A DNA stretch of 64,000 bases. Source: an uncultured delta proteobacterium. GTDB lineage: Bacteria > Myxococcota_A > Polyangia > Polyangiales > B10-G4. The stretch is from positions 96,001 to 160,000 of the forward strand of contig CAVSGI010000009.1 of NCBI GenBank assembly GCA_963727445.1, read 5' to 3'. The notes under the pieces were generated by a model. The model made no database searches, was not told the DNA's origin, and saw only the letters and a list, made by a program, of their open reading frames with translations. Shown here piece by piece: positions 8,171 to 44,678 of this stretch (its first letter is position 1; each line of letters starts with the position of its first letter). A program made the translations under genes and the position numbers.

Positions 8171-8238
8171 CTTGGCCCGTCGCGCACTCCGGTGTTGAGG
8201 AAGCTGGACAGTCTCGACGAAAGAACGCGTGTTTTCCG

Positions 8239-11275: not shown

Positions 11276-13579
11276 GTGGGCCAACGCCAACACACCGACC
11301 TGACACCGTGCCGGGAGGTGGTGGTCGAGGGGATCGTTCAGGGGGTCGGGTTTCGGCCCTTCGTGCACGCGCTGGCCATCAAGTTGGGACTCCGTGGCTG
11401 GGTCCGAAACGTCGGCGGAAAGGTAGACATCTCCGTCGAGGGGACGCCCGACGCGCTGGACGCGTTCATTCACGCGGTCAGACACGACGCGCCGCCACTC
11501 GCGCGAGTCGACACGGTGGAGGATCGGGAGGTTCCGTCGGCCGGCGCCGAGGGCTTTCGCATCGTCGAGAGCTCCACGGAGTCCACGCCGACGATACGCA
11601 TCGCCCCGGATGCGGCGACCTGTGCACGGTGCCTCGAAGAGCTCTTCGACCCGGACGACCGCCGGTTTCGCTACCCCTTCATCTGCTGTACGTCATGCGG
11701 GCCGCGCCTCACCCTCGCGATCGCCGCTCCTTGGGATCGCGCGCGCACCACGATGCGCTCGTTCGAGATGTGTCCCGACTGCCGGGCGGAGTACGAGGAC
11801 CCCGCCGATCGCCGCTTCCACGCGGAGCCCATCGCTTGTGCTGTGTGCGGTCCGTCGCTCCGCCTGCTCGATTCGGAAGGAGGCGTCATCAGCGACGTGG
11901 ACGTCGTCGGGGAAGCAGCACGGAGGCTGCGGCGGGGAGAGCTCCTCGCGATCAAGGGCCTCGGCGGATATCACCTGGCGTGCGACGCGACCTCCGACGA
12001 TGCGGTCGAACGGCTGCGGCGGCGAAAGCGTCGTGACGAGCGACCGCTGGCGGTGATGGTCCATAGTGTCGACGCGGCTCGGCGTATCGTCGACCTCGGC
12101 AGTGTCGAGGCAGGGCTGCTCGAAGGAGTCCCGAGGCCCATCGTGTTGGTGCGGGGCCGCGCGGAGGGGCTCTCACCTCGCGTGAGCGGTGCGGTCGCCG
12201 ATGTCGGCCTGATGCTGCCGTACACACCGCTGCATCATCTGCTGCTCGAAGCGTTGGCGGGGCTTCCAATCGTGCTCACCAGCGGCAACCGCAGCGAGGA
12301 GCCGATCGCATACGAAGACGATGATGCTCTGGCGCGCCTGGGCGACGTCGCCGACGCATTCCTCGTGCACGATCGGCCGATTCGCACGCGATGCGACGAC
12401 TCGGTGGCGCGCGTCGTCCGCGGGCGTCCGGTGCCGGTCCGCCGCTCCCGTGGATTCGCGCCTGCACCTCTGGTGCTCCGGCGTCCAGCGAAGAGGTCAG
12501 TGCTCGCCCTCGGCGGCCATCTCAAGGCGACGTTCGCCCTGGGGCACGGAAAGGGGGCGATCCTCAGCCACCACTTCGGCGACCTCGACGATCGGCGGGC
12601 GCTGCACGCCTACCGCGACGGGATCCGTCATTACGAAGCGCTCTTCGAACAGCGCCCCGACGTGCTCGTTCACGATCTGAACCCGGATTACGCGTCCTCT
12701 CTCTACGCTTTCGATCGAGCGCGTGACGAAGGCATCGAACGCATGGAGGTCCAGCATCATCGCGCCCACGTGGCCAGCTGCATGGCGGAGCACGGGCTCG
12801 AGGAGGAGGTCATCGGGGTGGCCTTCGACGGAGCTGGCTTGGGGGACGACGACACCATCTGGGGCGGGGAGTTCTTCGTAGGTACGCCGGGTGCCTTGGC
12901 GAGGCGCGCCCATCTGCGCCCGGTCTCTCTTCCCGGAGGAGAGGCCGCGATGCGTGAGCCGTGGCGCATGGCGGTGGCCCATGCCCACGCCGCCGGTCTG
13001 CCCGTCGAAGGGCTCGGCGCACCGCGTCCGGCAGAGCTCGATACGATCGTTCGGATGATCGAACGGTCGGTGGCTTCGCCCCAGACATCGAGCGTCGGGC
13101 GTCTCTTCGATGCCGTGGCTGCGCTGGCGGGTGTGAGGCACTTCAATACCTACGAGGGCCAGGCGGCGATCGAGTTGGAAGCCTTGGCAGTAGCGCACGG
13201 AAGAGACGAGGCCTCTTACCCCTTCGAAATTTCTCAGGAAGCGCCGGATACGCCTGTCGTGATCGACCCCAGGGAGCTGATCGCCGGCGTCATGACCGAT
13301 GTGAACGCGGGAATGGCGGCGTCGCGCGTGGCCCGGCGCTTCCACACCACCATCGCATCCATGATCGTCGAAGTTTGCAGAGTCCTCACCTCGCGACGGC
13401 GCCGACGTCTCCCCGTCTTGCTCACCGGTGGCGTCTTCATGAACGCGCTGTTGACCGATCGGACTGTCGGCGGTCTCGAAGCGGCGGGCTTCGACGTCTA
13501 CTGGCACCAGCGCATCCCACCCAATGACGGTGGTCTGTGCTTGGGACAAATCGCCATCGCCCTGACGAGGTGGCCTTGA
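11276..13579 (+). CDS. hypF: Carbamoyltransferase HypF
   Basis: GIVQGVGFRPFV acylphosphatase domain, zinc fingers, KGLGGYHLACDA, TSGN, RCDDSV, TSSVGRLFDAV, PPNDGGL.LGQ; AGGAG RBS. Confidence 0.97.
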   Translation: MGQRQHTDLTPCREVVVEGIVQGVGFRPFVHALAIKLGLRGWVRNVGGKVDISVEGTPDALDAFIHAVRHDAPPLARVDTVEDREVPSAGAEGFRIVESSTESTPTIRIAPDAATCARCLEELFDPDDRRFRYPFICCTSCGPRLTLAIAAPWDRARTTMRSFEMCPDCRAEYEDPADRRFHAEPIACAVCGPSLRLLDSEGGVISDVDVVGEAARRLRRGELLAIKGLGGYHLACDATSDDAVERLRRRKRRDERPLAVMVHSVDAARRIVDLGSVEAGLLEGVPRPIVLVRGRAEGLSPRVSGAVADVGLMLPYTPLHHLLLEALAGLPIVLTSGNRSEEPIAYEDDDALARLGDVADAFLVHDRPIRTRCDDSVARVVRGRPVPVRRSRGFAPAPLVLRRPAKRSVLALGGHLKATFALGHGKGAILSHHFGDLDDRRALHAYRDGIRHYEALFEQRPDVLVHDLNPDYASSLYAFDRARDEGIERMEVQHHRAHVASCMAEHGLEEEVIGVAFDGAGLGDDDTIWGGEFFVGTPGALARRAHLRPVSLPGGEAAMREPWRMAVAHAHAAGLPVEGLGAPRPAELDTIVRMIERSVASPQTSSVGRLFDAVAALAGVRHFNTYEGQAAIELEALAVAHGRDEASYPFEISQEAPDTPVVIDPRELIAGVMTDVNAGMAASRVARRFHTTIASMIVEVCRVLTSRRRRRLPVLLTGGVFMNALLTDRTVGGLEAAGFDVYWHQRIPPNDGGLCLGQIAIALTRWP

Positions 13580-13623
13580 CCTCCACGCAAGGCGCAGCAC
13601 ATGCTCAGAGAGGAGGTGGTCCA

Positions 13624-13881
13624 GTGTGTCTCGGCATTCCGGGTCGCATCATTCGCACCCACGCCGATGGGGATCTTCAGATGGCATCGGTCGAGTTCGG
13701 CGCGATCCGCCGCGATGTATGTATCGAGTACGTACCCGACGTCGAAGTGGGGGACTACGTCCTCGTTCACGTGGGCTTTGCGCTCTCTCGAATCGATGAG
13801 GCGGAGGCGAAACGTGTGTTCGCGCTTCTCGAGGAGCTGGGCGAGCTCGTCGAGCTCTCCGCGGGCGAGCCAACGCGATGA
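13624..13881 (+). CDS. hypC: Hydrogenase assembly chaperone HypC
   Basis: GTG-CLGIPG start, [27 protein letters not shown]. Confidence 0.96.
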
Positions 13882-22644: not shown

Positions 22645-23928
22645 GTGCCCTTCGTGCTCGCTGCGCTCCTACTGTCGGCGTGCTCCATCGACACCCACGC
22701 CATCGCTCCCGGCGTGGGTGCGGACGGGAGCGTCCCGGACGGGAACGTCACCGACGGTTGGATGGACACCATGGGACCCCTCGACGCCGAGGTGCGTGAC
22801 ACCGCGCCCCCGCGCGACGACACGGCGCCGCCCGACACGCGCGTGGTGGATTCCGGTCCACCGATGCCGACGCCCATCGTCACAGCGGCGAGCTCCGGAG
22901 GGTATGAAGGCCATCCCACGGTGATCTGGAGCGGGACGCGCTTCGACGTCGCTGTGATCTCCGTCGCTTCGGGTGGTGGGCACGTCGAGACCTACGGGAT
23001 GCTCCCCGGCGACGTGACCCCGATCGACCGACGCCGCGCGTCCTCGGGAGGTGCCAGAGACCGACGCGGCACGGTCCTCGCGTCGGCGCCCGACGGTCGC
23101 CTCGCGGTGGGCTGGCACGAGTACGACGGCGCCGAGTGGGACGTGGTGGTGGCGATCGACAGCGGCGGCTCGTTCACCGAGCGCCGCTTCGACGGCGCAG
23201 CCGCCGCGTCGGATCACAACAGCCTGGCCCTCTTCTGGGTGGGCAGTGAGCTCCGCGGGGTCGTGCGACAGGCGGGCGCCGGCGGCTCTCACAACGCCCG
23301 CGACGTCCGCTTCGATCCCGGGCCGGTGGCGATCGACATCGCTCCTTTCGCCGCCGCGCCGGACCTCGGCGGCATGGACGGCATCGGCGGACCGGACGGT
23401 CCCGTCGTCGTCTTCGGTGCGACCGGAGCGACCTTCCACCGCACCACGGCCTTCGTCACGATCGATTCCGTCGCTGCGCTCAGCCCGGTCGAGGCCGACG
23501 TGGCGATCCTCGACGACGAATCGATCTTCAGCGTGTGGTCTGCCGACGCATCCGGGGAGCGCGCGGTCTACGCGCGACGCCTCGATCGCTCGGGGAGCGC
23601 GTACGTTCCGGCGTTCGGCCCGCGGCTGCTCTCCTGGCGCGGCCCCGACCCGACGATCGCCGCCGCCTCCGCCGGCCCCGTCGGCGCGTACATCGACGAG
23701 TCCGGCGGTGAGCGCATCGTCACGGTGGTAGCCCTCGACGCCGACGGCGCGGAGATCGGCGGTCCGTGCCCCCTCGCGAACCTGCTGCCTTCGGCGAACG
23801 ACCCGGTCATCGCCTGTGGCGGAGGCTATTGCGCCGTCGTGTGGCTCGAAGGCTCGACTCGAAGCGACACGGATTTCGTCACACGGGTCGTCCAGTTGCC
23901 GATCTCGCCTGCCTTGATGTGTCCCTGA
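22645..23928 (+). CDS. Hypothetical lipoprotein
   Basis: LLLSAC lipobox, D/P/T-rich linker, beta-rich body. Confidence 0.7.
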   Translation: MPFVLAALLLSACSIDTHAIAPGVGADGSVPDGNVTDGWMDTMGPLDAEVRDTAPPRDDTAPPDTRVVDSGPPMPTPIVTAASSGGYEGHPTVIWSGTRFDVAVISVASGGGHVETYGMLPGDVTPIDRRRASSGGARDRRGTVLASAPDGRLAVGWHEYDGAEWDVVVAIDSGGSFTERRFDGAAAASDHNSLALFWVGSELRGVVRQAGAGGSHNARDVRFDPGPVAIDIAPFAAAPDLGGMDGIGGPDGPVVVFGATGATFHRTTAFVTIDSVAALSPVEADVAILDDESIFSVWSADASGERAVYARRLDRSGSAYVPAFGPRLLSWRGPDPTIAAASAGPVGAYIDESGGERIVTVVALDADGAEIGGPCPLANLLPSANDPVIACGGGYCAVVWLEGSTRSDTDFVTRVVQLPISPALMCP

Positions 23929-23929
23929 G

Positions 23930-24595
23930 ATGAGCACCTTCGCCTGGATGAAGTTCCTCGAGTCCTCGCCCGAGCGCTACGACCAGGGCATTCGCATGCT
24001 CTCCGGCGGTCGTATCGACGAGGTCTACGAGCGGATCGCGAAAAGAGTGGCCGCGCCCGAGCGGCGTGTGCTGGACATGGGGTGTGGCACCGGAGCGGTG
24101 GCGCTTTCGTGCGCGGCCCGCGGCGCGTACGTCACCGGCATCGACATCGATGCGGGCATGCTCGAGGTCGCTCGGGCCAAGCCGGTGCCCACCAAGGGGC
24201 GGGTCGAGTGGATGCAGGTGGGGATCGCCGAGATCGAGGACCACTTCGGGCCGGCGACCTTCGACGCCGTCGTCTCGTGTTTGATGTTCTCGGAGCTCTC
24301 GGCCGACGAGCGGGCGTACGCGCTCCGAGCGGCCCTCCGCGTTCTGGTCCCAGGGGGTGATGTGGTCATCGCCGACGAGACGGTGCCGCGCAGCACCCTA
24401 CGGCGCACCCTGCACCGTCTGCGCAGGGCGCCGCGCCACGCGCTCACCTACCTGCTCACGCAAACGAGCACGCGGCCCGTTCGAGAGCTCGGCGGGGCGC
24501 TGAGCGCGGCCGGCTTCGTGGACGTGGACGAGGCGCGCATCTGGTCCGATGCGTTCGTGATCGCGACCGGCCAAAAGCCGGGGGTGGCGGCGTGA
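23930..24595 (+). CDS. Class I SAM methyltransferase, corrinoid-protein-associated (CpaM-like)
   Basis: VLDMGCGTG, GIDID..ML, FDAVVS.L.FSEL; MK.LES.P.RYD.GI N-terminus; GTGA overlap with the corrinoid gene. Confidence 0.85.
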   Translation: MSTFAWMKFLESSPERYDQGIRMLSGGRIDEVYERIAKRVAAPERRVLDMGCGTGAVALSCAARGAYVTGIDIDAGMLEVARAKPVPTKGRVEWMQVGIAEIEDHFGPATFDAVVSCLMFSELSADERAYALRAALRVLVPGGDVVIADETVPRSTLRRTLHRLRRAPRHALTYLLTQTSTRPVRELGGALSAAGFVDVDEARIWSDAFVIATGQKPGVAA

Positions 24596-25704
24596 GGGTT
24601 CGCGACCTCTCGGGATGGTTGCGGGACACGCTGCTGCGGATGCTGCCGCACGCAGCGCCGACCGGGCTGATCCGCATCGGAAACCCGGACCGCGGCTCTC
24701 CCGTGCTACTCACCGGGAACTTCACCCTCACCGTCCGCCGCATGAGAGACGCGCTCGCCGGTCACGATGCGTGGCTCCTCTGCGCGAACAGCGAGGGAAT
24801 CAACGTCTGGTGTGCGGCAGGCGGCGGGCACCTCACGCATCACGACGTGATCTCGGTGATCCGCACCTCCGGCATCGAGGAGCTCGTCGACGACCACGAG
24901 ATCATCCTGCCTCAGCTCTGCGCCACCGGCGTCGAGCACCGGCGGATCACCGAGGTCACTGGATGGAAGACCCGCTGGGGCCCCGCGCGCCTCGAAGACC
25001 TACCCGACTATCTCGACGACGGTCGTCGAGTGAGTCACGACCAACGGTTCATGCGCTTCCCGGTGTGGGAACGTTCGGAGATGGCGATGATGTGGGGCGG
25101 CCCGTTGCTCCTCGTCGCCAGCCCGCTCGTCGGTTGGCTCTGGGGCTGGTCGACCCTGGCGGCGTGCGTGGCCACCGTCATCACCATCGTGGGCGGGATC
25201 TTCTGGCTGCTGCCGTGGCTTCGCGTCACCGGCGGGCTTCGGTGGTTGACCTTCGCCGCGTTCGCCGCGTTGGGCATGGGCGCCGGCGCGGGGGTGCTGA
25301 TGGCGCTCGGGGCCTCAGCCGGTCACCTCGCGGTCGTCGGCGTCATTGCCCTGATCGCCGCGGGCATCCTGGCGATCGATCTCGCCGGCACCACGCCCTG
25401 GTACGGGAGCTACATCAACACGTTCCACAACGAAGCGCACATCGAGCTCGTGGAAGAGCGGTGCAGCGGTGCAGCGGACTGCGTTCTGGTCTGCCCCCGC
25501 GACGTGTTGAAAATGAATGGCGCACGCCGGAAGGTGGAGATCACGAAGCCGGATCAATGCATCCAGTGCGGCGCCTGCATCGTCCAATGCCCCGACGACG
25601 CTCTGCGTTTTCGCTACGACGACGGGCGAGTCGTGGAAGCGGACACGATCCGGAGCACGCGCATGAACATGCTGGGACGGCGCAGCCTCCCGGTACGAGA
25701 CTGA
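24592..25704 (+). CDS. HgcAB-like fusion: corrinoid domain, about 4 TM helices, C-terminal ferredoxin
   Basis: TGL..IGNP...SPVL.TGNF.LT, GINVWCAAGG cap helix, ILPQL.A.GV, WGP; TM block; CSGAADCVLVCP and CIQCGACIVQCP. Confidence 0.9.
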   Translation: MRVRDLSGWLRDTLLRMLPHAAPTGLIRIGNPDRGSPVLLTGNFTLTVRRMRDALAGHDAWLLCANSEGINVWCAAGGGHLTHHDVISVIRTSGIEELVDDHEIILPQLCATGVEHRRITEVTGWKTRWGPARLEDLPDYLDDGRRVSHDQRFMRFPVWERSEMAMMWGGPLLLVASPLVGWLWGWSTLAACVATVITIVGGIFWLLPWLRVTGGLRWLTFAAFAALGMGAGAGVLMALGASAGHLAVVGVIALIAAGILAIDLAGTTPWYGSYINTFHNEAHIELVEERCSGAADCVLVCPRDVLKMNGARRKVEITKPDQCIQCGACIVQCPDDALRFRYDDGRVVEADTIRSTRMNMLGRRSLPVRD

Positions 25705-25767
25705 ACGCCGAGGCGATTGAGCGCGGAGCGCTGGATGAACCTGAGCAACATGGCGCACAATGGGTGG

Positions 25768-26409
25768 ATGCGCTTCGCACTGCTCTTCCTGGTCCCGCTC
25801 GCCTTCGCGGGGTGCTCCGATTCCCACAGCTCGACCGACGGGAGCGTGGGTGACGCGGATCCCTGCGCGGACGGCGCCTGCGTCGATACCGGTGTTCCGC
25901 CCGCGACCTACGATAGCTGCGACGTTCCGTCCGACTGCGTGCTGACGGCCAACACCTGTTGCGGCGTCTGCGGCGCGCCGACCCGCAGCGACGTCGCGGC
26001 CGTCAACGCCGACATGACGATGGACTACTACCTCGACGTGGCCTGCCCCGCCGCGCGCACCGCCCCGCCGCCGTGCCCCGATTGCGCCGGCATGCCGAAC
26101 CCGAACCTCATCGTCACCTGCATCGACTCCCGGTGCCGGGTCGTAGACCTCGCGTCCGACCCGCCCTACGCGGAATGCACCGCCGACTCGGATTGCATCG
26201 TCCGCGCGCGCGACTGCTGTGAGTGCGGCGCCGACCTCTCCCCCTTCAATCTCGTGGCGATCGCCGCGTCCGAGCTCTCGTCCTTCGAGGGCCTCGTCTG
26301 CGATCCGATGTCGGCCTGTCCCGAGTGTGCCCCCGTCTACCCGACCGACATCGGCGCCGCGTGCAACGACGGCTTCTGCGCCCTGGCGATGATGATGTCG
26401 ATGCCGTGA
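25768..26409 (+). CDS. Cys-rich lipoprotein with two internal repeats
   Basis: LAFAGC lipobox; C...SDC.....CC..CG...VA and CP.CA....C....C each occur twice. Confidence 0.75.
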   Translation: MRFALLFLVPLAFAGCSDSHSSTDGSVGDADPCADGACVDTGVPPATYDSCDVPSDCVLTANTCCGVCGAPTRSDVAAVNADMTMDYYLDVACPAARTAPPPCPDCAGMPNPNLIVTCIDSRCRVVDLASDPPYAECTADSDCIVRARDCCECGADLSPFNLVAIAASELSSFEGLVCDPMSACPECAPVYPTDIGAACNDGFCALAMMMSMP

Positions 26410-33413: not shown

Positions 33414-34691
33414 CTAGCGAAAGGGCCGGCCCTCCTCGGCGTAAGCGGCGGCGGACTCGAAGAGGTTGATCGCCATCAGGCTCTCCTCGGTCGCTGCGCG
33501 AGCGCGGTAGAGAGCGGCGACGCGGGCGCGGACCTCGGCGTCGGCGGGGCTGGCTTCGAGGGCGAAGTCGGCGAGCCCGCACGCGACGCGCATCATCCCG
33601 TCGCGCTGTAGCTTCTCCGCCCGCTCCATCAACTTCTTCGCACCGCCGGCGAGGCTGGCCACCTCGAGCGCGAGGGACGAGCGCCGCGGCGGCATCAGCT
33701 CGCTCGGCCGTCCGTTCCACCAGCCTCCGTAGTAGCGGATCACGTTGCGCACGATGAACTCGGCGTCGTCGTAGACGTTCTGGAGCCACGGGCTGTCGCT
33801 CTCGGGCAGACGGACGCGGTGCACGATGTCGGCGTGTGGCGGCGCCCCTTCGTTGAGCGCGTCGAGCGTCCGTTCGACGATGGTGTCGAGGAAGTCGGCG
33901 GTCTCGAGGAGCATGCGTTGGATCAGCGCCGGGTCGTTCACCACTGGGCCGCCGTGGCCGGGGCACATCGAGTGGGGATCGCGGGCCGCCATCTCCCTGA
34001 GACCGCTGGCCCAGTCCCAGGGATAGCGCTGCACCTTCTGCGGGTTGCCGGCGTTCGGCACGCCCCAGATGAAGAGGTCGCCGGGGCAGAGCACGCGACG
34101 GTCGGGGCAGAAGACCCAGGAGTGATCGTCGGTCTCCCCGCGGCAGTGATGCACCTCGAAACGCACGCCGCCGACCTCGAGGTCGAGTCGCTCCTCGTAG
34201 AGCTCGGTGGGCGGGAGCTCGGGCGTCCCGAAGGTGTCGTAGTCCTCCGCCAGGGCGCCGCTCTCGGCGCGCACCGTCGCCCCGAACTGCCGCGCGTTGA
34301 TCGCGCGGTTGTAGCCGGCGGTGCGGCGGTATCGCGCGAAGCGCGCGGGCATCGCGCGATGGCCCACGATCCGCGGCGGCGACTGCCCGTCCTTCAGGAA
34401 GGCCGCGAGACCGAAGGCGTGGTCCACGTGACCCTGGGTGAAGATCGCGGTGTGGATCGGTCGGTCGGTCTTCTGTCGGATCTGCGCCGCGAGGAGCGGG
34501 CCGATGCGCTTCAAGCCCGAGTCGACGAGCACCACGCCTTCGTCGGTGTCGAAGGCGGTGACGCCGCTGAACATGGATGCGAAGAAGGTGCGGTCGTCGA
34601 CGTCGACGGGACCGCCCGACCAGAGGAACTTCGCTTCCTCGGGGGACTTGCCTCTGTTGTTTGCAAAGGCCGAGACAGGATCGATCGCCAT
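33414..34691 (-). CDS. Alkyl-sulfatase-like MBL hydrolase with dimerisation domain
   Basis: VLVDSG, TQGHVDH, GETDDH, PNAGNPQKVQRY, PGHG, R.YGGWW.G.PSEL. Confidence 0.85.
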   Translation of the reverse strand: MAIDPVSAFANNRGKSPEEAKFLWSGGPVDVDDRTFFASMFSGVTAFDTDEGVVLVDSGLKRIGPLLAAQIRQKTDRPIHTAIFTQGHVDHAFGLAAFLKDGQSPPRIVGHRAMPARFARYRRTAGYNRAINARQFGATVRAESGALAEDYDTFGTPELPPTELYEERLDLEVGGVRFEVHHCRGETDDHSWVFCPDRRVLCPGDLFIWGVPNAGNPQKVQRYPWDWASGLREMAARDPHSMCPGHGGPVVNDPALIQRMLLETADFLDTIVERTLDALNEGAPPHADIVHRVRLPESDSPWLQNVYDDAEFIVRNVIRYYGGWWNGRPSELMPPRRSSLALEVASLAGGAKKLMERAEKLQRDGMMRVACGLADFALEASPADAEVRARVAALYRARAATEESLMAINLFESAAAYAEEGRPFR

Positions 34692-34751
34692 GGGACGGCC
34701 ATTTGACGCAGGCGCACCGAGATTCGCAACCACGTGGTATCACCCGCCTCG

Positions 34752-37091
34752 ATGAAGGGACGCGTCCTGCCGCTCCTGGCCCTCGCGGCGCTCGTGGCCG
34801 GCGCCGCGTGGGCGGTGACGCGCCTCGAGGTGGAGACCGACATCACCCGCTTTCTTCCGGAGGGCGACGACCCACGGATCGCGGCGGTGGCCCGCGAGGT
34901 GGTGAGCTCGGAGCTGAACCGGACCATCACCCTCACGCTCGAGGCGCCCACCGAGGACGTGGCCGCCGCTGCGGCCGAGGAGATGGGCGAGCGCCTCGCC
35001 GAGAGCGACGACGTCGAGTGGGTTCGGAGCGGACCCGACGAGGCGCTGCAGCAGGCGTTCTACGAGGCGTACTTCCCCCGACGCTACGGCTTCGCGCGGA
35101 ACCTCGACGTGTCCGACGCGGCCCTCGCCGAGCGCGTCGCGTATCTCAAGTCACAGCTCGCTCTGCCGACCGCACCCTTCATTCGCGAGATCGCCGCCTC
35201 CGATCCACTGCTGCTCTTCCCGGAGCAGCTCGACGCGCTCTCCGACGAGCTGCGCGGCACCCTACGCGTGCACGAGGGCGCCTTCATCACGGAGGACGGG
35301 AGCTACGGCGTGGTGCTCCTCGCGTCACGCGCTTCCGCCTTCGACGCCGCCGCCGCCCGCCGTCTGCTCGCGGAGATCGACCAGGACTTCGCTGCCGTGA
35401 ACGACGCGCATGGCGGCGAGCTCTCTCTCGAGATGTCCGGCGTCCACCGCTTCGCCGTCCGCGGCGAGGAGAACACCAAAGCCGACATCTCCCGCGTCTC
35501 GATCACCGGCACCATCGGCGTGCTCCTCTTCCTACTCGTCATCTTCCAGAAGCCCCGCTACCTCCTCCTCGGCAACGTACCGCTGGTGGCGGGCGTGGCG
35601 AGCGCGCTCTTCGCCACTTCGCTCGTCTTCGACACGATCCACGGCCTGACCCTCGCCTTCGGCGCCACGCTCATCGGCGTCGCCATCGACTACGTCGCCC
35701 ACTACTTGAACCACCATGTCCTCGCCCCCGATCCGAGCGGGCCCGAGGGGACGATGCGGCGCATCTGGCCGGGTCTCTTCCTCGGCGGCGTCACCACCAT
35801 CGCGGGCATCGCGGGTCTCGCCGGCACCGGCTACCCCGCGATCCAGGAGATGGCCTTCTTCACCAGCGTCGGCGTCCTCGGCGCGCTCCTCGCCACGCGC
35901 TTCTTCATGCCGCCCTTCATGATCGCCCAGCCGACGCCGACGCGCCTCCATCGCGCGCTGGCCGAGCGCGTCAGCCGCGCCCTCGAGGGGCTCGCCGCGC
36001 GGCGACGGCTGCTCTACCTGATCCCGGTGGCGGTGGTGCTCCTCGTCGGGGGCGGCCTCACCCGGCTTTCCTTCCTGGATGACGTTCGCGTGCTGAACGC
36101 CCTCGACCCGCAGCTCGTCGCCGAGGACGAGCGCGTGCGCGAGCGGGTGGCCCGCGTCGATGTGGGGCGCTTCATCGTCGCTTTCGGAGACGATCTCCAG
36201 TCCGCCCTCGAGGTGAACGATCGCGTGCGCGACACGCTCGACCAGGCGGTCGACGATCGCGTCATCGGCCGCCGCCGCAGTCTCTCCCCGCTCCTGCCCT
36301 CCGCCAGCACGCAGCGCGCGCGGCGCGACGCCATCGTCGACGCGCCGAACCTCGTCCAGCGCACCTTCGCGGCCCTCGAAGCCGAGGGCTTCGTGACCGC
36401 ACCCTTCGCGCCCTTCGCCGAGTCGATCCGCGCCCCCTACGATCCGCTCACCCTCGCGGACCTCCGAGGCACGCCCATCGCGCCGCTCATCGCGCCCTTC
36501 CTCCTCGACACCGAGGGCGACGCCGCCGTCCTCACGTTCGTCCACGACGTCCGCGACCCGGACGTGCTCGCCACGCGCATCGACGCCATCGACGGCGCGC
36601 TCTACTTCGATCAGCCGGCGTACATGGGCCGGGCCTACCGCCGGTTTCGCACCTCGGTGGAGTGGCTCCTCGCGGCAGGCCTGGTCCTCGTCTTCCTTCT
36701 GATCGTCGGCCGCTACCGCTCGGTCCGGAGCAGCCTCGCCGCCTATCTGCCCGCCGTCGGCGCCGGCGCGGCGACGCTCGGGGCGATCAGCCTCCTCGGC
36801 TTCCCCCTCACCCTCATCCACGTCGTCACCCTGCTCCTCGTGCTCTCGATGGGCGTCGACTACGGCGTGTTCATGGTCGAGTCGGAGCGCCACGAAGAGG
36901 GCCCGACCCCCACTGTGGTCAGCCTCCTCATCGCCTGTGCGTCCACCGTCCTCAGCTTCGGCGCGCTCGCCTTCAGCGCGCAGCCCGCGCTCCGCGCGAT
37001 GGGCCTGACCACCGCCATCGGCGTGCTCCTCAGCATGCTCTTCGCTCCGGCTGCGTGGCTCCTCGCCGGGCGCGGCGATCGCGATCGCTGA
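34752..37091 (+). CDS. MMPL-family exporter (ApeM-like, aryl-polyene-type clusters)
   Basis: TDI..FLP, DPLLL, IHGLTLAFGATLIGVAIDY..H, L.MGVDYGVF, LSFG.LAFS..PAL. Confidence 0.88.
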   Translation: MKGRVLPLLALAALVAGAAWAVTRLEVETDITRFLPEGDDPRIAAVAREVVSSELNRTITLTLEAPTEDVAAAAAEEMGERLAESDDVEWVRSGPDEALQQAFYEAYFPRRYGFARNLDVSDAALAERVAYLKSQLALPTAPFIREIAASDPLLLFPEQLDALSDELRGTLRVHEGAFITEDGSYGVVLLASRASAFDAAAARRLLAEIDQDFAAVNDAHGGELSLEMSGVHRFAVRGEENTKADISRVSITGTIGVLLFLLVIFQKPRYLLLGNVPLVAGVASALFATSLVFDTIHGLTLAFGATLIGVAIDYVAHYLNHHVLAPDPSGPEGTMRRIWPGLFLGGVTTIAGIAGLAGTGYPAIQEMAFFTSVGVLGALLATRFFMPPFMIAQPTPTRLHRALAERVSRALEGLAARRRLLYLIPVAVVLLVGGGLTRLSFLDDVRVLNALDPQLVAEDERVRERVARVDVGRFIVAFGDDLQSALEVNDRVRDTLDQAVDDRVIGRRRSLSPLLPSASTQRARRDAIVDAPNLVQRTFAALEAEGFVTAPFAPFAESIRAPYDPLTLADLRGTPIAPLIAPFLLDTEGDAAVLTFVHDVRDPDVLATRIDAIDGALYFDQPAYMGRAYRRFRTSVEWLLAAGLVLVFLLIVGRYRSVRSSLAAYLPAVGAGAATLGAISLLGFPLTLIHVVTLLLVLSMGVDYGVFMVESERHEEGPTPTVVSLLIACASTVLSFGALAFSAQPALRAMGLTTAIGVLLSMLFAPAAWLLAGRGDRDR

Positions 37092-37097
37092 TCCGCC

Positions 37098-37544
37098 TCA
37101 GGCGCCTGCGTCGGGCGGCGGTCCACCGGCCGACGCGACGTTGATCGATCCGCTCGCCACCTCGTCGCCGTCCCGCGTGAGCACGCACTCGAACTGCGCG
37201 AGCGGGCCGTTGCCCCACAGCTCTTTGACGTCGATGGTCAGCGCGTCGCCCAAGTGAAACGCGTCGACGGTCACGTCCACCTTGCGCGTGCCGAGAAGGA
37301 ACCCGCCCGTCGGCGGCATCCCCGCTTTCGCAGCGCGGTAGACCATGAGCGCGGCAGCCGCCTGCGCGAAGAGCTCGATGGCGACCAGCGGTGTCACGCG
37401 CCCCGCGTCGGCCATGATGTGACCTTCGCCCAGATGGCACCGACACACGATGCGGGCCTCTTCGACCTCGAGCACCTCGTCGATGAAGCGCATCGGCGGC
37501 TGGTGCGGCATCTGCGCCACGACCCAGCTCAGGTCCTCCGCCAT
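37098..37544 (-). CDS. Hotdog-fold 3-hydroxyacyl-ACP dehydratase (ApeP-like)
   Basis: PHQPPMRFIDEV, IELFAQAAA, GFLLGTRK. Confidence 0.85.
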   Translation of the reverse strand: MAEDLSWVVAQMPHQPPMRFIDEVLEVEEARIVCRCHLGEGHIMADAGRVTPLVAIELFAQAAAALMVYRAAKAGMPPTGGFLLGTRKVDVTVDAFHLGDALTIDVKELWGNGPLAQFECVLTRDGDEVASGSINVASAGGPPPDAGA

Positions 37545-37557
37545 GGTGAACGTCGTT

Positions 37558-37932
37558 CTATTCGCCGCCGACGGCGGCCTTCTTCTCGGCGGGGGCGCCT
37601 TCGGTCCCGCCGTCTTCGCCGCCTTCGGCAGCGATCGCGCGCGGATCGGTCGGCCGCTGAACCTCGGGCTCGGGCAAGCCCTTCTCGGCGGCGTCGAGCT
37701 CACTCTCCACGAAGAGGATGAGGTCTTCGACGGTGCGGACCTTGCGCGCCTCGGTGGGGTCGGGGCGTCGCCCCGTGATCTCGCGCAACTGGACGAAGAT
37801 GTCGACCGCGTCGATGCTGTCGAGGCCGAGCTCTTCGTAGAGCTTGGACTCGTGCTTGATCTCTTCGGGCTCGAGCTCGAACGACTCGGCGAGGATCTCG
37901 ACGAGGGTGTCGTAAATTTCGTCTCTAGTCAT
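37558..37932 (-). CDS. Acyl carrier protein with C-terminal extension
   Basis: LYEELGLDSIDAVD phosphopantetheine Ser motif, VRTVED. Confidence 0.92.
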   Translation of the reverse strand: MTRDEIYDTLVEILAESFELEPEEIKHESKLYEELGLDSIDAVDIFVQLREITGRRPDPTEARKVRTVEDLILFVESELDAAEKGLPEPEVQRPTDPRAIAAEGGEDGGTEGAPAEKKAAVGGE

Positions 37933-38028
37933 GAGTGGGAAAGACCTCAGCAGCGCGGGAGTATAGGTAAGCAGGCGACCCTTGCAAGTGAGGGGCCTGA
38001 CCCCTCGCGCAAGCTCTCTTCGAGCAGG

Positions 38029-39840
38029 TCAGACGGCGCCGGGCCTCGGCGTATTCGATGTAATGGATCCCGCAATTTCAGTGCTTTGTGGGGTGATCCC
38101 GGCTCTCGTGAAGAGCTCGTCCATCGGAACCAGCTCCCCGCTCCACCGCCCGAGGGCGCGCTCGAGGTCTCTCGCCAGCGTGGACAGCCGTTCACGCCGT
38201 TCTCGCCTGGGGAGTGAATCCGCTCTCACCCGCTCCCAGTCGATGGCCAGATCCCAGCTCCCCAGGTCGATGCGACGGGCGAGCTCGGGGGCGTTTTCGG
38301 GTCCGACGCCGCGGAGCGCCAGCATCAGCATCTCGAAGAGCAGCTCCTCGGTCTTCGCCACGTCGGCGCGCATGCGTGAAAGCGTGTGCTCGATGGAGCG
38401 ATCCTCGAGCAGCTCGAGGTGCTGATCCGCGAGGGTCGAGGGGAACATGGGCAGCGGCGTGAAGGGCCGGCCGGGGTGCAGGGTGACGGTCTTGAGGTCC
38501 GCCCAGGCGTTGCACAGCACCTGCGCCAGGTGGTTGAGGCGGTTGTAACGAAGACCGACCTCGTGGAAGGCCGCGAGCTCCTCGGCGGGCAGGCGGTAGG
38601 CGCGCCGGAAGAAATAGGGACACATGAAGGTCCAGTAGACGAAGAAGTCCCACCAGAGCTTCGCGCCGAAGACGTCGTGGTGCGGGAAGATGGCCCCGTT
38701 GTCGACGAGCACCTTGCCGATCTCGTCGGCCCAGGTGATGTGGAGCTCGTTGAACATCGAGACGCGCACGGGATCGTTTTGTCCCGTCTCGAGGTCCTCG
38801 CGGATGAGCTCGGCGGTGAAGCAGTTGGCGAGGCCGATGAAGTCCGAGCCCGGGCTGTAGAGGGGATCGACGAAGAGGCCCGCTTCTCCGACGCACGCCC
38901 AGCGGTCCTCGCTGAAGCACTTCTTCGAGGAGTAGCTGTAGCCCTCGAGCATCTTGAAGTCCTCGAACTTCACGCCTTCGAGGGCGGCGGCGAGCTCGGG
39001 CTCGTTCTTCGCGAGCCAGGCGCGCGCCTTGTCCTCGCTGTCGTAAGAGGCGAAGGGTTGGTTCTTCTCGTCGGCGACGATGCCGATGCTCGTCATCCCG
39101 GTCGAGAGCGGGATGAGCCAGACCCAGTAGCCGCGCCCCATCAGGTGGCAGGTCGACAGCCAGCGGTTGTCGTCGACGTCGCGCGCGTGCCAGCGCTTTT
39201 CGCTTTCGGGGACCAGCTCGCCGACCTTGAGGCGCCGGTCGATGCGGAACCACGCGGCGCTCTGGTCGTTGTCGTTTTCGACGCGCAGGCCGAGCTTGCG
39301 TTGAAGGAGCTGACGTCGCCCGGTGGCGTCGACCGCCCAGCGCGCCGTGAGGGTCTGCTCCTCGCGGGTCTTCTTGTCGAAGACCACGACGCGGTGGTCC
39401 TCGCTCTCGTCGGTGAGCTCGATGTCCTTGACGACCCAGCCCTCGTAGAGGGTCACGCCTTCGTCGGCCAGGATCTGCCGGACGTCATTTTCGAGCTTGC
39501 CGCGATCCATCTGGTAGCTCGGTACGATCGGCGGCTCCGAGGGACCGAGCTCGGTGCGCTTCCAAAGCGGGGTCCCCTCTGGAGCGCAGAAGAAGCGCAG
39601 GCCGTTCTTGTGAAGGTGATCCGCGTCCAGGTAGTCCTTCAGTCCGGCGATCTGCGAGATGTAGTGCGTACCCATCTCGACGCTGGACTCGCCGACCTTG
39701 TGGCAGGCGATGGGGAGCGGTCGCTTCGCGGCCTCGACCACGCAGAGCGAAGCCTGAGGAAGCTCACGGCGAAGCTGCCGGGCCAGGGTGAGGCCGGCGA
39801 GCCCTCCACCACAGATGACGACGTCGAAATGCGTGCGCAT
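38029..39840 (-). CDS. Flavin-dependent halogenase-like protein 1
   Basis: GGGLAG, KVGES, HLHKNGLRF, DATGR, WVWLIP (WxWxIP), FVDPLYSPG. Confidence 0.85.
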   Translation of the reverse strand: MRTHFDVVICGGGLAGLTLARQLRRELPQASLCVVEAAKRPLPIACHKVGESSVEMGTHYISQIAGLKDYLDADHLHKNGLRFFCAPEGTPLWKRTELGPSEPPIVPSYQMDRGKLENDVRQILADEGVTLYEGWVVKDIELTDESEDHRVVVFDKKTREEQTLTARWAVDATGRRQLLQRKLGLRVENDNDQSAAWFRIDRRLKVGELVPESEKRWHARDVDDNRWLSTCHLMGRGYWVWLIPLSTGMTSIGIVADEKNQPFASYDSEDKARAWLAKNEPELAAALEGVKFEDFKMLEGYSYSSKKCFSEDRWACVGEAGLFVDPLYSPGSDFIGLANCFTAELIREDLETGQNDPVRVSMFNELHITWADEIGKVLVDNGAIFPHHDVFGAKLWWDFFVYWTFMCPYFFRRAYRLPAEELAAFHEVGLRYNRLNHLAQVLCNAWADLKTVTLHPGRPFTPLPMFPSTLADQHLELLEDRSIEHTLSRMRADVAKTEELLFEMLMLALRGVGPENAPELARRIDLGSWDLAIDWERVRADSLPRRERRERLSTLARDLERALGRWSGELVPMDELFTRAGITPQSTEIAGSITSNTPRPGAV

Positions 39841-39973
39841 GCGCCCCTTCTCGTGGCGGGTATAGGGCATGGTCGCGGTGGGAGCAATCGGGCCCGCGCC
39901 CCGCGCTTGTCCGCATGCTCGACGCTGGCGGTGGTGCTACGGTGGCCCGCCTGGGAGAGGGTAAGAGGAGCGA

Positions 39974-41551
39974 ATGGAGCACAGCGTCGATGTGGCCATC
40001 CTGGGGGGTGGCCTCGCGGGAAACCTGCTTGCACGCCAGCTGCGAAGAGAGCTGCCGGCTCTATCCGTCAGCATCTTCGAGCGCGAGACCGAGCGCACCT
40101 GGAAGGTGGGAGAGTCGACCGTCGAGATCGCGGCCGCGTATCTGACCCGGCGGCTCGGGCTCACGAAGTACCTCTACGAGCGGCACCTGCCCAAGAACGG
40201 CCTGCGCTTCTTCTTCGACGACGAGCAGCGGAGCGCGAACCTCGAGGACATGAGCGAGATCGGGCTCATGAGCCTGCCGCCCTATCCGAGCTTCCAGCTC
40301 GACCGCGCGCGCTTCGAGCGAGACCTCCTCGAGATGAACGCGGCGGACGGTGTCGACGTGCACCTCGGCACGCGCGTCGCCGATCTGACCCTCGATGATG
40401 GCAGCGACGGTCACGTCTTCCGCGCCATCGCCGACAACGTCGAGCGCCGGGTCAAGGCGCGCTGGGTGGTGGACGCCACGGGCCGCGGCGGTCTGATCTC
40501 GACCCAGAAGAAGCTCAAGGTGCCCGAGCGGGGCCATCGCATCGCCGCGACCTGGGGCCGCTTCGAGGAGGTCGCGGACATCGACGACTGGCCCGCGCCC
40601 GAGTGGCGCGCCCGCGTGAACCACACCGCGCGCTACCTCTCGACGAACCACTTCTGCTACCCGGATCAGTGGATCTGGTTCATCCCGCTTCGCGAGGGCG
40701 TGACCTCGGTGGGCGTGGTGGCGGACGCGTCGACCTGGGACAAGCGCTTCCACACCGAGGAAGGCTTCCTCGCGCACCTGCGCGCACACCGCGCGCCCGA
40801 GCAGCTCCTCGAGAAGGCCAAGCTCCTCGACATCGGCTCCTTCACGCAGCTCGCCTTCCGCACCAAGCAGTTCTTCAGCGCCGAGCGCTGGGCGTGCGTG
40901 GGCGACGCAGCGGCCTTCGTCGACCCGTTCTACAGCCCGGGCTCGGACTTCATCGCCATCGAGAACGACATCGTGGCGAACCTGATCGCGAACGAGGTGG
41001 CCGGCGAGGACATCCACGAGCGCGCTCAGGCCTTCGACGAGTTCATGCAGTTCCGCTTCGACACGGCGATGGCCCTCTACCAGGACCAGTACCGCACCTT
41101 CGGCAGCTTCGAGCTCTTCAAGGCCAAGGTCTATTTCGACTGCGCCTGTTACTACAACCTCTGGTTCGACTCCTACGAGCGCGACGAGCACATCGATCTG
41201 AAGGCGGTCAAAGGCGTGCTCCGGCGCAAGGAGCCGGTGATCGTCGCGATGGAGAACTTCAAGCAGCTCTTCCGCGGTGCGGCCGACGAGCTGATGCGGC
41301 GCGGTGATTACTACCGACAGAACACCGGCATCGGATTCCACGACGGTCAGGCGGCCTTCGGTCCCATCATGGACGTCGGCAAGAAGCGCCGCCGTCCGGC
41401 GATCGATCGGCGCACCGAAGAGATCTTCAACGAGACCACCAAGATGGTGCACGCCATGCTCGACGGTGATGCTTCGGTCTACGTGCCGCGTCCCATCTGG
41501 GACTTCGCCGAGAAGGGCGGGATCCTCCCCGCCGCCCGCGTGGGTGCCTGA
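39974..41551 (+). CDS. Flavin-dependent halogenase-like protein 2
   Basis: GGGLAG, KVGES, HLPKNGLRF (K74), DATGR, WIWFIP, GDAAAFVDPFYSPG; AGGAG RBS. Confidence 0.87.
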   Translation: MEHSVDVAILGGGLAGNLLARQLRRELPALSVSIFERETERTWKVGESTVEIAAAYLTRRLGLTKYLYERHLPKNGLRFFFDDEQRSANLEDMSEIGLMSLPPYPSFQLDRARFERDLLEMNAADGVDVHLGTRVADLTLDDGSDGHVFRAIADNVERRVKARWVVDATGRGGLISTQKKLKVPERGHRIAATWGRFEEVADIDDWPAPEWRARVNHTARYLSTNHFCYPDQWIWFIPLREGVTSVGVVADASTWDKRFHTEEGFLAHLRAHRAPEQLLEKAKLLDIGSFTQLAFRTKQFFSAERWACVGDAAAFVDPFYSPGSDFIAIENDIVANLIANEVAGEDIHERAQAFDEFMQFRFDTAMALYQDQYRTFGSFELFKAKVYFDCACYYNLWFDSYERDEHIDLKAVKGVLRRKEPVIVAMENFKQLFRGAADELMRRGDYYRQNTGIGFHDGQAAFGPIMDVGKKRRRPAIDRRTEEIFNETTKMVHAMLDGDASVYVPRPIWDFAEKGGILPAARVGA

Positions 41552-41553
41552 GC

Positions 41554-42792
41554 ATGAGTGACGCCGATCGCCGCGTCGTGATCACCGGGATGGGCGCGGT
41601 CTCGCCGATCGGCAACACGGTCGAGGACTCCGTCGCGAAGCTCGCGGCCATGGAGCACGGCATCCGCTTCATGGACGAGTGGGAGTTCATGGAGGACCTG
41701 CAATGCCGGCTCGCGGCGAACGTGACCGGCATCGACTTCAAGAAGCATTACCACCGGCGCGTTCGCCGGACGATGGGGCGCGTCTCGCTCCTCGCTCTCT
41801 ACGCGACCGAGCAGGCGCTCGAGCAGGCGGGCATCACCGCCGAGATGATGGAAGGCGGCCGCACCGGCCTCGCCTATGGATCGACCAGCGGATCGAGCGG
41901 TGAGCTCGAGCTCTACAGCCGGCCGCTGATGAACTCGAATTCGCTGCGCGGGCTCGAGTCGAACGCCTACCTGAAGATCATGGCGCACACCTGCGCCGCC
42001 AACCTCGCGAGCCACTTCAAGATCCGCGGCCGCGTCCAGCCGACGTGCAGCGCGTGCACCAGCGGCTCGCAGGCGGTGGGCTACGGCTACGAGATGATCA
42101 AGCACGGGATCGAGGACGTGATGATCTGCGGCGGTGCCGAGGAGATGCACTACACCAGCGCGGTCACCTTCGATCTCTTGATGGCGACGTCGGTGCACTT
42201 CAACGCGCGGCCCGACGACACGCCCCGACCCTTCGACGCCGACCGCGACGGACTGGTCACCGGCGAAGCGGGCGCCACCCTGGTGCTCGAGAGCTACGCC
42301 CACGCCAAGGCGCGCGGCGCGGAGATCCTCGGCGAGATCATCGGCTTCGCGAGCTGCTGCGATGGGGCGCACATCACCAACCCCAACCCCGACGGGATGC
42401 GACGCGTGATGGACCTCGCCCTCGCCGACGCGAAGCTCTCGCGCGACAAGGTGGACTACGTGCACGCCCACGCCACCGCGACCACCGTGGGAGACGTCGC
42501 CGAAGCGCAGGCGACGCACGACCTCTTCGAGCGGAAGATCCCCATCGCGAGCACCAAGGCGCACGTCGGCCACACCCTCGGCGCGTGCGGAGCGCTCGAA
42601 GCCATCTGGAGCCTCGAGATGATTCGCAAGGGCTTCATGGCCGCGACGCGCAACCTCGAAAAGCTCGACCCGGAGTGCCCGCCGCTCGACTATCTGACCG
42701 AGACCCGCGACGACAAGCCCACCGTGGTGATGAGCAACAACTTCGCCTTCGGTGGCGTGAACACGTCGCTGATCATCGCGCCGGCTCCCTGA
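41554..42792 (+). CDS. Beta-ketoacyl-ACP synthase (FabF/ApeR-like)
   Basis: RVVITGMG, SACTSGSQAVG (catalytic Cys), PRPFD..RDG, HAHATAT, GHTLGACG, SNNFAFGGVN. Confidence 0.94.
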   Translation: MSDADRRVVITGMGAVSPIGNTVEDSVAKLAAMEHGIRFMDEWEFMEDLQCRLAANVTGIDFKKHYHRRVRRTMGRVSLLALYATEQALEQAGITAEMMEGGRTGLAYGSTSGSSGELELYSRPLMNSNSLRGLESNAYLKIMAHTCAANLASHFKIRGRVQPTCSACTSGSQAVGYGYEMIKHGIEDVMICGGAEEMHYTSAVTFDLLMATSVHFNARPDDTPRPFDADRDGLVTGEAGATLVLESYAHAKARGAEILGEIIGFASCCDGAHITNPNPDGMRRVMDLALADAKLSRDKVDYVHAHATATTVGDVAEAQATHDLFERKIPIASTKAHVGHTLGACGALEAIWSLEMIRKGFMAATRNLEKLDPECPPLDYLTETRDDKPTVVMSNNFAFGGVNTSLIIAPAP

Positions 42793-42793
42793 A

Positions 42794-43414
42794 TCAGAGC
42801 GGCGTGTAGCGCAGCGTGTGGATGGTGCTTCGGTACCCGTGCCACTGGTTGTCGAAGTCGACGACGTCGGGGGGCGCGACTTCCGCCGGGGCGTTGGGCG
42901 CCATGCCGCCTTCGTAATCGACGACGATCTTGCCTGCCGGCACGCCATCGAGGCGTTCGAAGGTACGCTCGAGGAGCTTGCCTCCGTTCCAGCGCTCGTG
43001 GATGCGCTCGCCGTCGCGCTCGAAGGTCATCTCCGAGGAGCCGTCCACCGGCGGCTGGTTCGGCTGGAGCCAGGTCCGATGGACGTCGTAGAGCATGTAC
43101 TCCGGGGGGAAAGGCAGCTCGATGGTGACGAAGGTCTGCCAGTCGAAGTCCATCCCGTTCTGGGTCAGCACGAAGGCGCGCCCGCCGGCGGGTCCGAGGC
43201 CCACCATCGTCAGCGTGTTGTCCTGCTTCTGCAAAACGGCGTGGAACGAGCTCTCGCCTTCGGCGTGGTGGATCGTCACGTCCTGCTCGAGCGCCCACTG
43301 CCCCGGCAGGTCGGCTGGCATCACCAGGTGCGTCGGGTAGGGAGCCGCCTCCTGTGGTGGAGTCGTGGTTCCGCCACAGGCCGAGAGCAACACCAGAAGG
43401 AGCGTCGCGCGCAC
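42794..43414 (-). CDS. DUF3261-like lipoprotein (ApeN-like)
   Basis: LLSAC lipobox, L.MVGL.P.G.R.F.L, P.YML.D, C-terminal Y...I.TL. Confidence 0.75.
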   Translation of the reverse strand: MRATLLLVLLSACGGTTTPPQEAAPYPTHLVMPADLPGQWALEQDVTIHHAEGESSFHAVLQKQDNTLTMVGLGPAGGRAFVLTQNGMDFDWQTFVTIELPFPPEYMLYDVHRTWLQPNQPPVDGSSEMTFERDGERIHERWNGGKLLERTFERLDGVPAGKIVVDYEGGMAPNAPAEVAPPDVVDFDNQWHGYRSTIHTLRYTPL

Positions 43415-43473
43415 TTCGCCCTCATATCACGAGCGGTTGCTCGGTGCTCGCCTCTCTGGAAGAGTCCCGGCCG

Positions 43474-43809: not shown

Positions 43810-43811
43810 AC

Positions 43812-44657: not shown

Positions 44658-44678
44658 GCCCGCCGCCGAGGGCCGGCG

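Follow-up and report, generated by a model that had tools for sequence, protein, structure and literature searches.

An HgcAB-like corrinoid–ferredoxin fusion protein with a three-cysteine cluster motif and a conserved tail, coupled to the methyltransferase CpaM in a probably aerobic myxobacterium

The window analyzed here, a 64,000-nucleotide stretch from an uncultured delta proteobacterium (contig CAVSGI010000009.1, positions 96,001 to 160,000, assembly GCA_963727445.1), contains the gene of a class I S-adenosylmethionine (SAM)-dependent methyltransferase, CpaM, which overlaps the gene of a corrinoid–ferredoxin fusion protein resembling the mercury-methylating proteins HgcA and HgcB (Table 1). 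The locus raises the question of what such a pair does in a host that probably lives aerobically. The reason why microbes carry hgcAB is itself an open question, and a sister family is a natural place for the native chemistry. We tentatively propose, with a probability of about 0.45, that the pair relays a methyl group from SAM via cobalamin to an acceptor that is small, probably lipophilic, and other than mercury. The window copy represents a subtype with three cysteines in the first cluster motif and a conserved tail, which, together with a predicted interface, makes the function of the family more testable but does not reveal it.

Family assignment of the gene pair

The fusion protein matches the profile of the HgcAB-like fusion protein (NF043039) over positions 3–350 of 350 with 400.1 bits (cut-off 285, E 1e-119), and the methyltransferase matches the CpaM profile NF043040 with an E value of 9e-83, its next-best family being MenG/UbiE at 59 bits. 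The fusion protein stays below the cut-offs of HgcA (NF040863, 155.7 bits against 275) and HgcB (NF040864, 52.3 bits against 99), and its first cluster motif reads CxxAxxC, so that it has only one of the two CxxCxxCxxxCP motifs expected of HgcB. The corrinoid, transmembrane, and ferredoxin domains lie in one chain, which is the architecture of the HgcAB-like family. In the corrinoid-domain tree, calculated with IQ-TREE from 80 rows sampled from 159, the HgcAB-like proteins including the window copy are placed apart from HgcA with a Shimodaira–Hasegawa-like approximate likelihood ratio test (SH-aLRT) support of 100. The profile searches and the tree thus identify the window protein as HgcAB-like rather than HgcA, as a preliminary description made from the sequence alone had suggested.

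Cys74 of the cap helix aligns with the cobalt-ligating cysteine of HgcA and is kept in all 159 rows; judging from this alignment, the cobalamin is likely Cys-bound in the fusion protein. Translation and alignment bear out both the retained cysteine and the glycine in place of lysine that had been described for the cap. Because 53 of 53 members in the alignment have Gly78, the change from lysine to glycine is a trait of the family. The novelty previously attached to the pair was overstated, since both genes exceed the cut-offs of named NCBIfam families and the glycine is common to all the aligned members. By their profile scores, the window genes belong to a known family, in which the pairing of CpaM with an HgcAB-like protein is already catalogued. 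The "fused HgcAB" proteins of Podar 2015, Gilmour 2018, and Lin 2023 have the same order of corrinoid, transmembrane, and ferredoxin domains and the same coupled methyltransferase. In the set of Lin 2023 (10.1101/2022.11.21.517362), a fused gene was found in one aerobe. Literature searches, whose coverage left out most subscription papers and the bioRxiv supplements, returned no paper on CpaM, its two accessions, or an aerobic fused subtype.

The presence of the cap cysteine, a membrane domain, and a ferredoxin would be compatible with a working mercury methylase, that is, an ordinary fused hgcAB in an aerobe. True single-chain fusions of HgcA and HgcB do exist: P0245 and P0267 score 300 and 334 bits against HgcA, have GK in the cap, keep the Cys73-like and tail cysteines, and lie within the HgcA clade, so that being fused does not by itself mean being a non-methylator. 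The window protein lies outside that clade and below the cut-offs of both families, its cap NVWCAAGG deviates from N(V/I)WC(A/S)(A/G/S)GK, and it fits none of the six high-stringency HgcA cap motifs given in PMC10087281. It has no cysteine at the position of HgcB Cys73, the loss of which abolished methylation (PMC7305189), and neither of the two tail cysteines; its last cysteine is Cys333, in agreement with the earlier statement that an HgcB-type cysteine tail is missing. Both tested organisms with fused genes, which encode archaeal proteins, were reported to make no methylmercury (PMC4646819, PMC5893877), as the preliminary description had also stated, although a lack of methylation in culture is no proof that the enzyme cannot perform it (Podar 2015, PMC4646819). 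A mercury methylase is therefore highly improbable. The host genome encodes a single HgcAB-like protein and lacks a true HgcA. Since none of the 55 CpaM-linked genomes checked contains a true HgcA, the HgcAB-like family should be kept out of hgcA surveys.

Compared with HgcA and HgcB of Pseudodesulfovibrio mercurii ND132, the window protein shares the cap helix with a cobalt-ligating cysteine, the membrane domain, the dicluster ferredoxin, and SAM as the likely donor. It differs in being one chain, in the cap glycine, in having about four rather than five transmembrane helices and seven rather than eight cluster cysteines, and in the lack of equivalents of Cys73, Cys94, and Cys95. The HgcAB-like family also has a dedicated methyltransferase, a TetR instead of an ArsR-like regulator, and a separate clade.

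Two variants of the family were observed in passing. Five actinobacterial copies (L003, L006, L008, L011, and L015, near position 8210) have the cap sequence DVWCAAGGG, with aspartate instead of asparagine where the cap helix begins. Another HgcAB-like subtype, about 450–500 residues long, has a hydrophobic N-terminal extension of about 140 residues and a cap such as N(I/V)WCSSLAGHF (L080:7746-8984; P0190, P0205, P0207, P0209, P0212–P0214, P0225, P0234, P0247, P0268, and P0279). The extensions of P0190 and P0207 gave no Pfam match, and G365, the genome that hosts L080, also encodes a true HgcA.

A subtype with three distal-cluster cysteines and a cysteine-free tail

The ferredoxin domain of the fusion protein contains cluster cysteines 291, 297, 301, 323, 326, 329, and 333. 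The first motif, C291-S-G-A294-A-D-C297, provides three of the four ligands for its cluster, and the domain is followed by a conserved tail without cysteines; the missing second cysteine and this tail are traits that the preliminary description overlooked. No cysteine is present at position 294, or anywhere after the last motif, in any of the 120 closest homologues listed out of 1789 (window protein included). Both motifs are readable in 159 proteins, 74 of which lack the cysteine and have the tail, 80 have the cysteine and no tail, four have both, and one has neither. The two traits agree in 154 of the 159 sequences, a count that is not a test of co-evolution because the sequences are kin. 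When only representatives at 50% identity are considered (n = 94), the respective numbers are 26, 63, four, and one. On the tree, the tail requires three changes and the cluster cysteine seven. FastTree places 65 of 66 tail rows in a single clade with a support of 0.92, and IQ-TREE leaves two tail clades at an open fork.

In the HgcAB model, residues 20, 23, 26, and 60 of HgcB bind cluster A, and cluster B is positioned 14.9 Å from the cobalt (PMC7305189). According to this residue-to-cluster assignment, the ligand lost from the window protein belongs to the distal cluster. CXX(A/G)XXC is a described [3Fe-4S] motif (PMC6237146), and the distal cluster is likely a [3Fe-4S] cluster or one with an open site. 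Two ferredoxins with the CXX(A/G)XXC motif were stable at 120 µM O2 for 40 min (PMC6237146). The window protein shares with such [3Fe-4S] and 7Fe ferredoxins the alanine in place of the second cysteine; however, the [3Fe-4S] ferredoxins described there are single-cluster partners of cytochromes P450, whereas the motif here lies in a dicluster domain that forms one chain with a corrinoid membrane protein, and its cluster type is a prediction.

A full-length match of at least 380 bits to the oxidase family PF00115 was found in 44 of the 45 tail-type hosts and in three of the nine tail-less hosts, in a comparison for which the 380-bit line was set post hoc, the hosts are related and mostly from one phylum, G316 is counted in both groups, and G360 and G365 are omitted as having other architectures. 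The single tail-type host below the line has two contig-end fragments. The tail-type subtype thus appears, from gene content, to sit in oxidase-bearing hosts, and the window copy is distinguished from the fused HgcAB proteins at large by its host type as well as by the three distal-cluster cysteines and the tail. The genome G316 contains both a tail-less eight-cysteine cassette (L134) and a tail-type cassette (L142), each led by a different TetR gene, and has a third HgcA-like match on contig C102.

Gene coupling and the predicted CpaM–fusion protein complex

CpaM is encoded directly upstream of the HgcAB-like gene in 22 of 22 loci (L001–L022) and in none of 57 loci with split hgcA (L023–L079). 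The two genes overlap by four bases in 50 and by one base in four of 60 related loci, a set in which L016 and L130 are the same locus counted twice. In addition, eight single-chain CpaM–HgcAB-like proteins with lengths of 584–638 residues were found. The linkage of the two genes, on which the earlier interpretation depended, is thus conserved across genomes.

The AlphaFold model of the fusion protein (predicted local distance difference test score, pLDDT, of 90; predicted template modeling score of 0.86; 53-row alignment) is composed of a Rossmann-type domain, long helices formed by residues 158–263 that fit four membrane spans, the ferredoxin, and a short helix in the tail. The closest folds are those of the HgcAB model 9a0b, a computed structure (E 1e-11), and of CFeSP (corrinoid iron–sulfur protein), as expected for the HgcA-type corrinoid fold proposed before; the model and the hydropathy profile also agree on the approximately four transmembrane helices and the fused ferredoxin. 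The model of CpaM (pLDDT 93.6) is similar to CmoA, Coq5, and phospholipid N-methyltransferases. A sequence search of solved structures gave no match to a structure of HgcA, an HgcAB-like protein, or CpaM.

CFeSP (AcsC/CdhE), which functions with the methyltransferase MeTr, resembles the window system in its corrinoid-domain fold (root-mean-square deviation of about 2 Å over about 128 columns) and in the use of a separate methyltransferase. Nevertheless, CFeSP is soluble, whereas the fusion protein is predicted to be membrane-bound. The methyl donor of CFeSP is methyltetrahydrofolate, delivered by a TIM-barrel enzyme, and not SAM delivered by a class I enzyme. Furthermore, CFeSP is described as lacking the cap cysteine (PMC7305189).

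The complex of CpaM with the fusion protein was predicted with a score of 0.67, compared with 0.00 for the best of three controls. Among the reference cases, 116 of 157 solved complexes and two of 215 mismatched pairs attain the score mark; these counts apply only roughly, since the prediction relied on our own alignments and included a SAM ligand. At least 38% of the contacts are common to the runs, and the partner pLDDT is at least 78. The predicted interface is formed by residues 23–25, 66, 82–93, 122, and 354–356 of the fusion protein and residues 73–79, 96–104, and 124–130 of CpaM. A conserved acidic patch of CpaM, comprising E101, D104, and E127, is predicted to face the fusion protein; E127 is invariant in 53 of 53 sequences, and D104 is present in 96%. 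On the side of the fusion protein, position 91 is occupied by arginine or lysine in 47 of 47 tail-type and seven of eight tail-less copies linked to CpaM, and in 16 of 16 single-chain proteins. A basic residue is mostly absent from this position in 22 true HgcA proteins, in which glutamate is the commonest (11). CpaM is therefore predicted by the model to dock beside the cap helix on the basic residue, which is in line with the membrane-bound methyltransferase–corrinoid partnership postulated in the preliminary description. Searches of solved structures turned up no like complex.

Proposed function and mechanism

HgcAB provides the template for a possible reaction cycle: SAM methylates Co(I) in the Cys-on state, the methyl group has been proposed to depart as either a radical or a carbanion, and the cofactor is reset by two electrons (PMC11588087). 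The cap cysteine, the ferredoxin, and a SAM enzyme are kept together in the window pair, for which this cycle, run with a different acceptor, is the best explanation. The ferredoxin would reduce the cobalamin to Co(I), and CpaM docked by the cap helix would supply SAM, so that Co(I) is trapped by its methylation to methyl-Co(III). In analogy to HgcAB, the methyl group could then be passed, in radical or carbanion form, to an electrophilic acceptor at the membrane, one that may be beyond the reach of ordinary SAM enzymes, before two electrons reset the cobalt. The electron-entry cluster, which lacks one cysteine ligand, is likely a more oxygen-stable [3Fe-4S] center, the C-terminal tail likely adds a contact to CpaM, and the TetR that frequently accompanies the cassette likely senses the acceptor. 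The TetR control, the membrane domain, and the absence of metal-binding cysteines together point to a small, lipophilic, organic acceptor.

In the main alternative, the Co(I) corrinoid protein would reduce or reductively dehalogenate a lipophilic compound of small size. CpaM, docked to it, would methylate the product as an ordinary class I methyltransferase or would repair oxidized cobalamin. A preprint reports the dechlorination of CCl4 by heterologously expressed HgcAB (10.64898/2026.04.26.720869); it mentions no fused proteins and is not peer reviewed. HgcAB works without a methyltransferase, and the fold neighbors of CpaM, as well as MenG/UbiE as its next-best family, would suit an enzyme with a substrate of its own. 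Conserved CpaM residues outside the interface (R16, Y17, D18, S121, E122, E150, R159, and R166) could form an acceptor pocket. Conversely, the potential of [3Fe-4S] clusters is higher (−203 to −85 mV in earlier examples, PMC6237146), which suits the sustained turnover of a Co(I) reductase poorly unless SAM traps Co(I), and dehalogenation genes do not recur among the scanned neighbors. We regard this alternative as somewhat unlikely.

Several observations weigh against the methyl relay. Purified HgcAB was methylated by SAM without a separate methyltransferase (PMC11588087), and thus CpaM is not needed for the corresponding step in the closest system. The locus L080 has a fused HgcAB-like gene with no CpaM nearby. 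The complex prediction does not show the methyl group of SAM facing the cobalt, because the model cannot hold cobalamin, and the interface residues of CpaM presumably form the adenosine side of the SAM pocket in class I anatomy. The interface of CpaM is barely more conserved than the whole protein (mean conservation 0.65 and 0.60, respectively), and the halves of a naturally fused gene are a class that tends to pass the complex test. The association of the tail subtype with oxidases is phylogenetically confounded, and a single origin of the tail is not claimed, since the IQ-TREE analysis neither excludes nor shows one. In addition, the window copy has no TetR gene, its slot being occupied by a lipoprotein gene; the heterogeneous neighbors of the cassette name no substrate; and the strict E values of the neighbor scan could have missed small ArsR or MerR genes.

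A broader proposal, which we consider unlikely as a whole, is that the tail subtype would be an inducible cobalamin methylase that tolerates oxygen and has spread through aerobic bacteria of soils and sediments in several phyla. The methyl group of SAM would be made nucleophilic for an organic acceptor at the membrane by the docked SAM enzyme together with an electron wire capped by a [3Fe-4S] cluster. Methylation of this acceptor may be the original task of the lineage in which mercury methylation arose as a side reaction. The subtype now provides a predicted interface that can be mutated, a cluster change accessible to measurement, and a TetR partner that could serve as a reporter of the ligand.

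Host physiology and cobalamin supply

The host genome has a size of 9.5 Mb and a guanine–cytosine (GC) content of 69%, which fits its labeling as a myxobacterium. It encodes two full-length heme-copper oxidases and a broken third one, in accordance with the probably aerobic lifestyle assumed before. Eight matches to B12-binding domains, seven of them above the cut-off, speak for the use of B12. At L241:7204-11445 (contig C20 of the host genome, G000), a cobalamin riboswitch (112.6 bits) is followed by genes for two lipoproteins without a Pfam family and a TonB-dependent receptor, an arrangement that likely serves B12 uptake. CobS was not found in the genome, which is 85.6% complete, nor was a match to the BtuB model at E 1e-20. 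Therefore, the host can respire oxygen and likely scavenges B12; of the two cobalamin sources considered earlier, uptake is backed by the likely import operon and the evidence of B12 use, whereas synthesis is not, CobS not having been found at this level of completeness. Methylmalonyl-CoA mutase is present in 53 of 55 carriers, which indicates B12 use only, as carriers alone were counted.

Distribution and neighbors of the cassette

In a sample of 301 genomes of the host phylum, 33 genomes (34 copies, all subtypes pooled) exceed the CpaM cut-off; 33 readable copies all adjoin the partner gene, and the remaining one runs off its contig. The pair is patchy among relatives of the host, occurring in seven of 61. 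Close copies with 58–69% identity are present in Actinomycetota, Alphaproteobacteria, Gammaproteobacteria, and Acidobacteriota, and the actinobacterial and alphaproteobacterial copies nest among the relatives of the host on the tree. One carrier (L015) is a cultured aerobe, Mycolicibacterium. A metagenome scan with CpaM yielded 80 loci, of which four are close and three of these four contain a readable pair.

Of the 41 tail-type loci whose flank is long enough, 17 have a TetR gene directly upstream, which in most cases overlaps the start of CpaM; a TetR gene also adjoins the pair in two of eight tail-less loci. The TetR proteins of the cassettes form at least two groups with only about 20–25% identity to each other, which indicates that TetR was recruited more than once; one of them weakly resembles KstR2/FadR-type regulators (E ~1e-12). 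A tblastn search of the host genome returned only generic TetR matches. No neighbor other than TetR recurs among 72 first and 65 second neighbors, which were scanned out of 85 and 87 after near-duplicates and very short calls had been dropped.

The patchy cassette that crosses phyla resembles resistance genes in its distribution, as would befit a relay to a metal or metalloid other than mercury (As, Sb, Se, Te, or Bi) for detoxification or export. Cys-on methylcobalamin favors methyl transfer to soft metal ions (PMC7305189), and true hgcAB is often led by an ArsR-like gene and located near ars genes (PMC7438021). Such an acceptor is nevertheless quite unlikely: the close homologues listed have no metal-binding cysteines after the clusters, the recurring regulator is TetR and not ArsR or MerR, ars, mer, and ter families are absent from the scanned neighbors (E 1e-12 and 1e-15), and a search of 72,556 plasmids at E 1e-15 gave no match.

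In the Mycolicibacterium locus (L015, 1630–7013), the gene immediately upstream of the pair, on the same strand, encodes a CobW-family (COG0523) GTPase, and another gene similar to it is located farther upstream. An archaeal-type SAM synthetase gene (PF01941) is located two genes upstream of the pair at L005:5551-6720.

Organization of the locus

The three open reading frames, the one-base gap between the stop codon of the lipoprotein and the ATG of CpaM, and the GTGA overlap were re-read from the sequence and are all located where the preliminary description had placed them (Table 1).

Table 1. Features of the CpaM–HgcAB-like locus in window coordinates
Feature	Positions	Strand	Details
Lipoprotein, no known family	22645..23928	+	427 residues, lipobox LSAC; from list of open reading frames; no Pfam or NCBIfam match
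CpaM, class I SAM-dependent methyltransferase	23930..24595	+	221 residues; NF043040, 277 bits against cut-off 180
CpaM SAM motif DMGCGTG	24074-24094	+	In CpaM reading frame
GTGA stop/start overlap, translational coupling of CpaM to fusion gene	24592..24595	+	
HgcAB-like fusion protein: corrinoid domain, about four transmembrane helices, ferredoxin domain, C-terminal tail	24592..25704	+	370 residues; NF043039
Cap helix NVWCAAGG, residues 71–78	24802..24825	+	Cys74, predicted cobalt ligand; Gly78 at position of HgcA lysine
Helix 82–93 with Arg91	24835..24870	+	Predicted CpaM docking site (complex model)
Membrane domain, residues 158–263, about four helices	25063..25380	+	Hydropathy and AlphaFold model
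First cluster motif CSGAADCVLVCP	25462..25497	+	Ala294 (25471-25473) where second cysteine expected
Second cluster motif CIQCGACIVQCP	25558..25593	+	Intact; probably supplies cluster nearest cobalt, by analogy with HgcAB model
Cysteine-free conserved C-terminal tail, residues ~338–364, helix 350–356	25603..25683	+	Residues 354–356 predicted CpaM contacts

The one-base spacing on the same strand and the lack of a terminator-like site on the plus strand between the genes suggest that the lipoprotein is probably co-transcribed with the pair. In a three-gene unit, the lipoprotein would deliver or receive the substrate at the envelope. However, clustering of the neighbors in 24 and 61 loci found no relative of the lipoprotein beside the pair, and none was found in the carriers of the same order, G036 and G053. 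A paralogue with 35% identity on contig C10 of the host is far from any such pair, because the genome contains one HgcAB-like gene. The missing conserved linkage largely refutes the three-gene unit already, leaving it only a slim chance; the lipoprotein was rejected as a third subunit and, from these comparisons, appears to be incidental and not a conserved part of the cassette.

A recent transfer into the host was considered and rejected, as the GC content at third codon positions of 0.86–0.89 is ordinary and the codon index of the fusion gene, 0.65, is at the low end without being an outlier. A promoter scan at the locus found none and was uninformative. In a comparison with the one genome of the same genus, only kinase-like stretches matched.

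Directly downstream of the fusion gene, positions 25735-26409 of the window encode a cysteine-rich repeat lipoprotein without a Pfam or NCBIfam match and without a paralogue in the genome at E 1e-5. Judged by eye, the genes at 1395-4279 and 11318-13878 resemble those for hydrogenase maturation (protease, HypA, HypB, HypF, and HypC), broken up by two-component genes, whose codon index is lower than that of any other gene in the window. The region 33417-45896, likewise judged by eye, resembles a type II fatty-acid or polyketide cluster with an MMPL-like transporter, an acyl carrier, halogenase-like oxidoreductases, and a ketosynthase.

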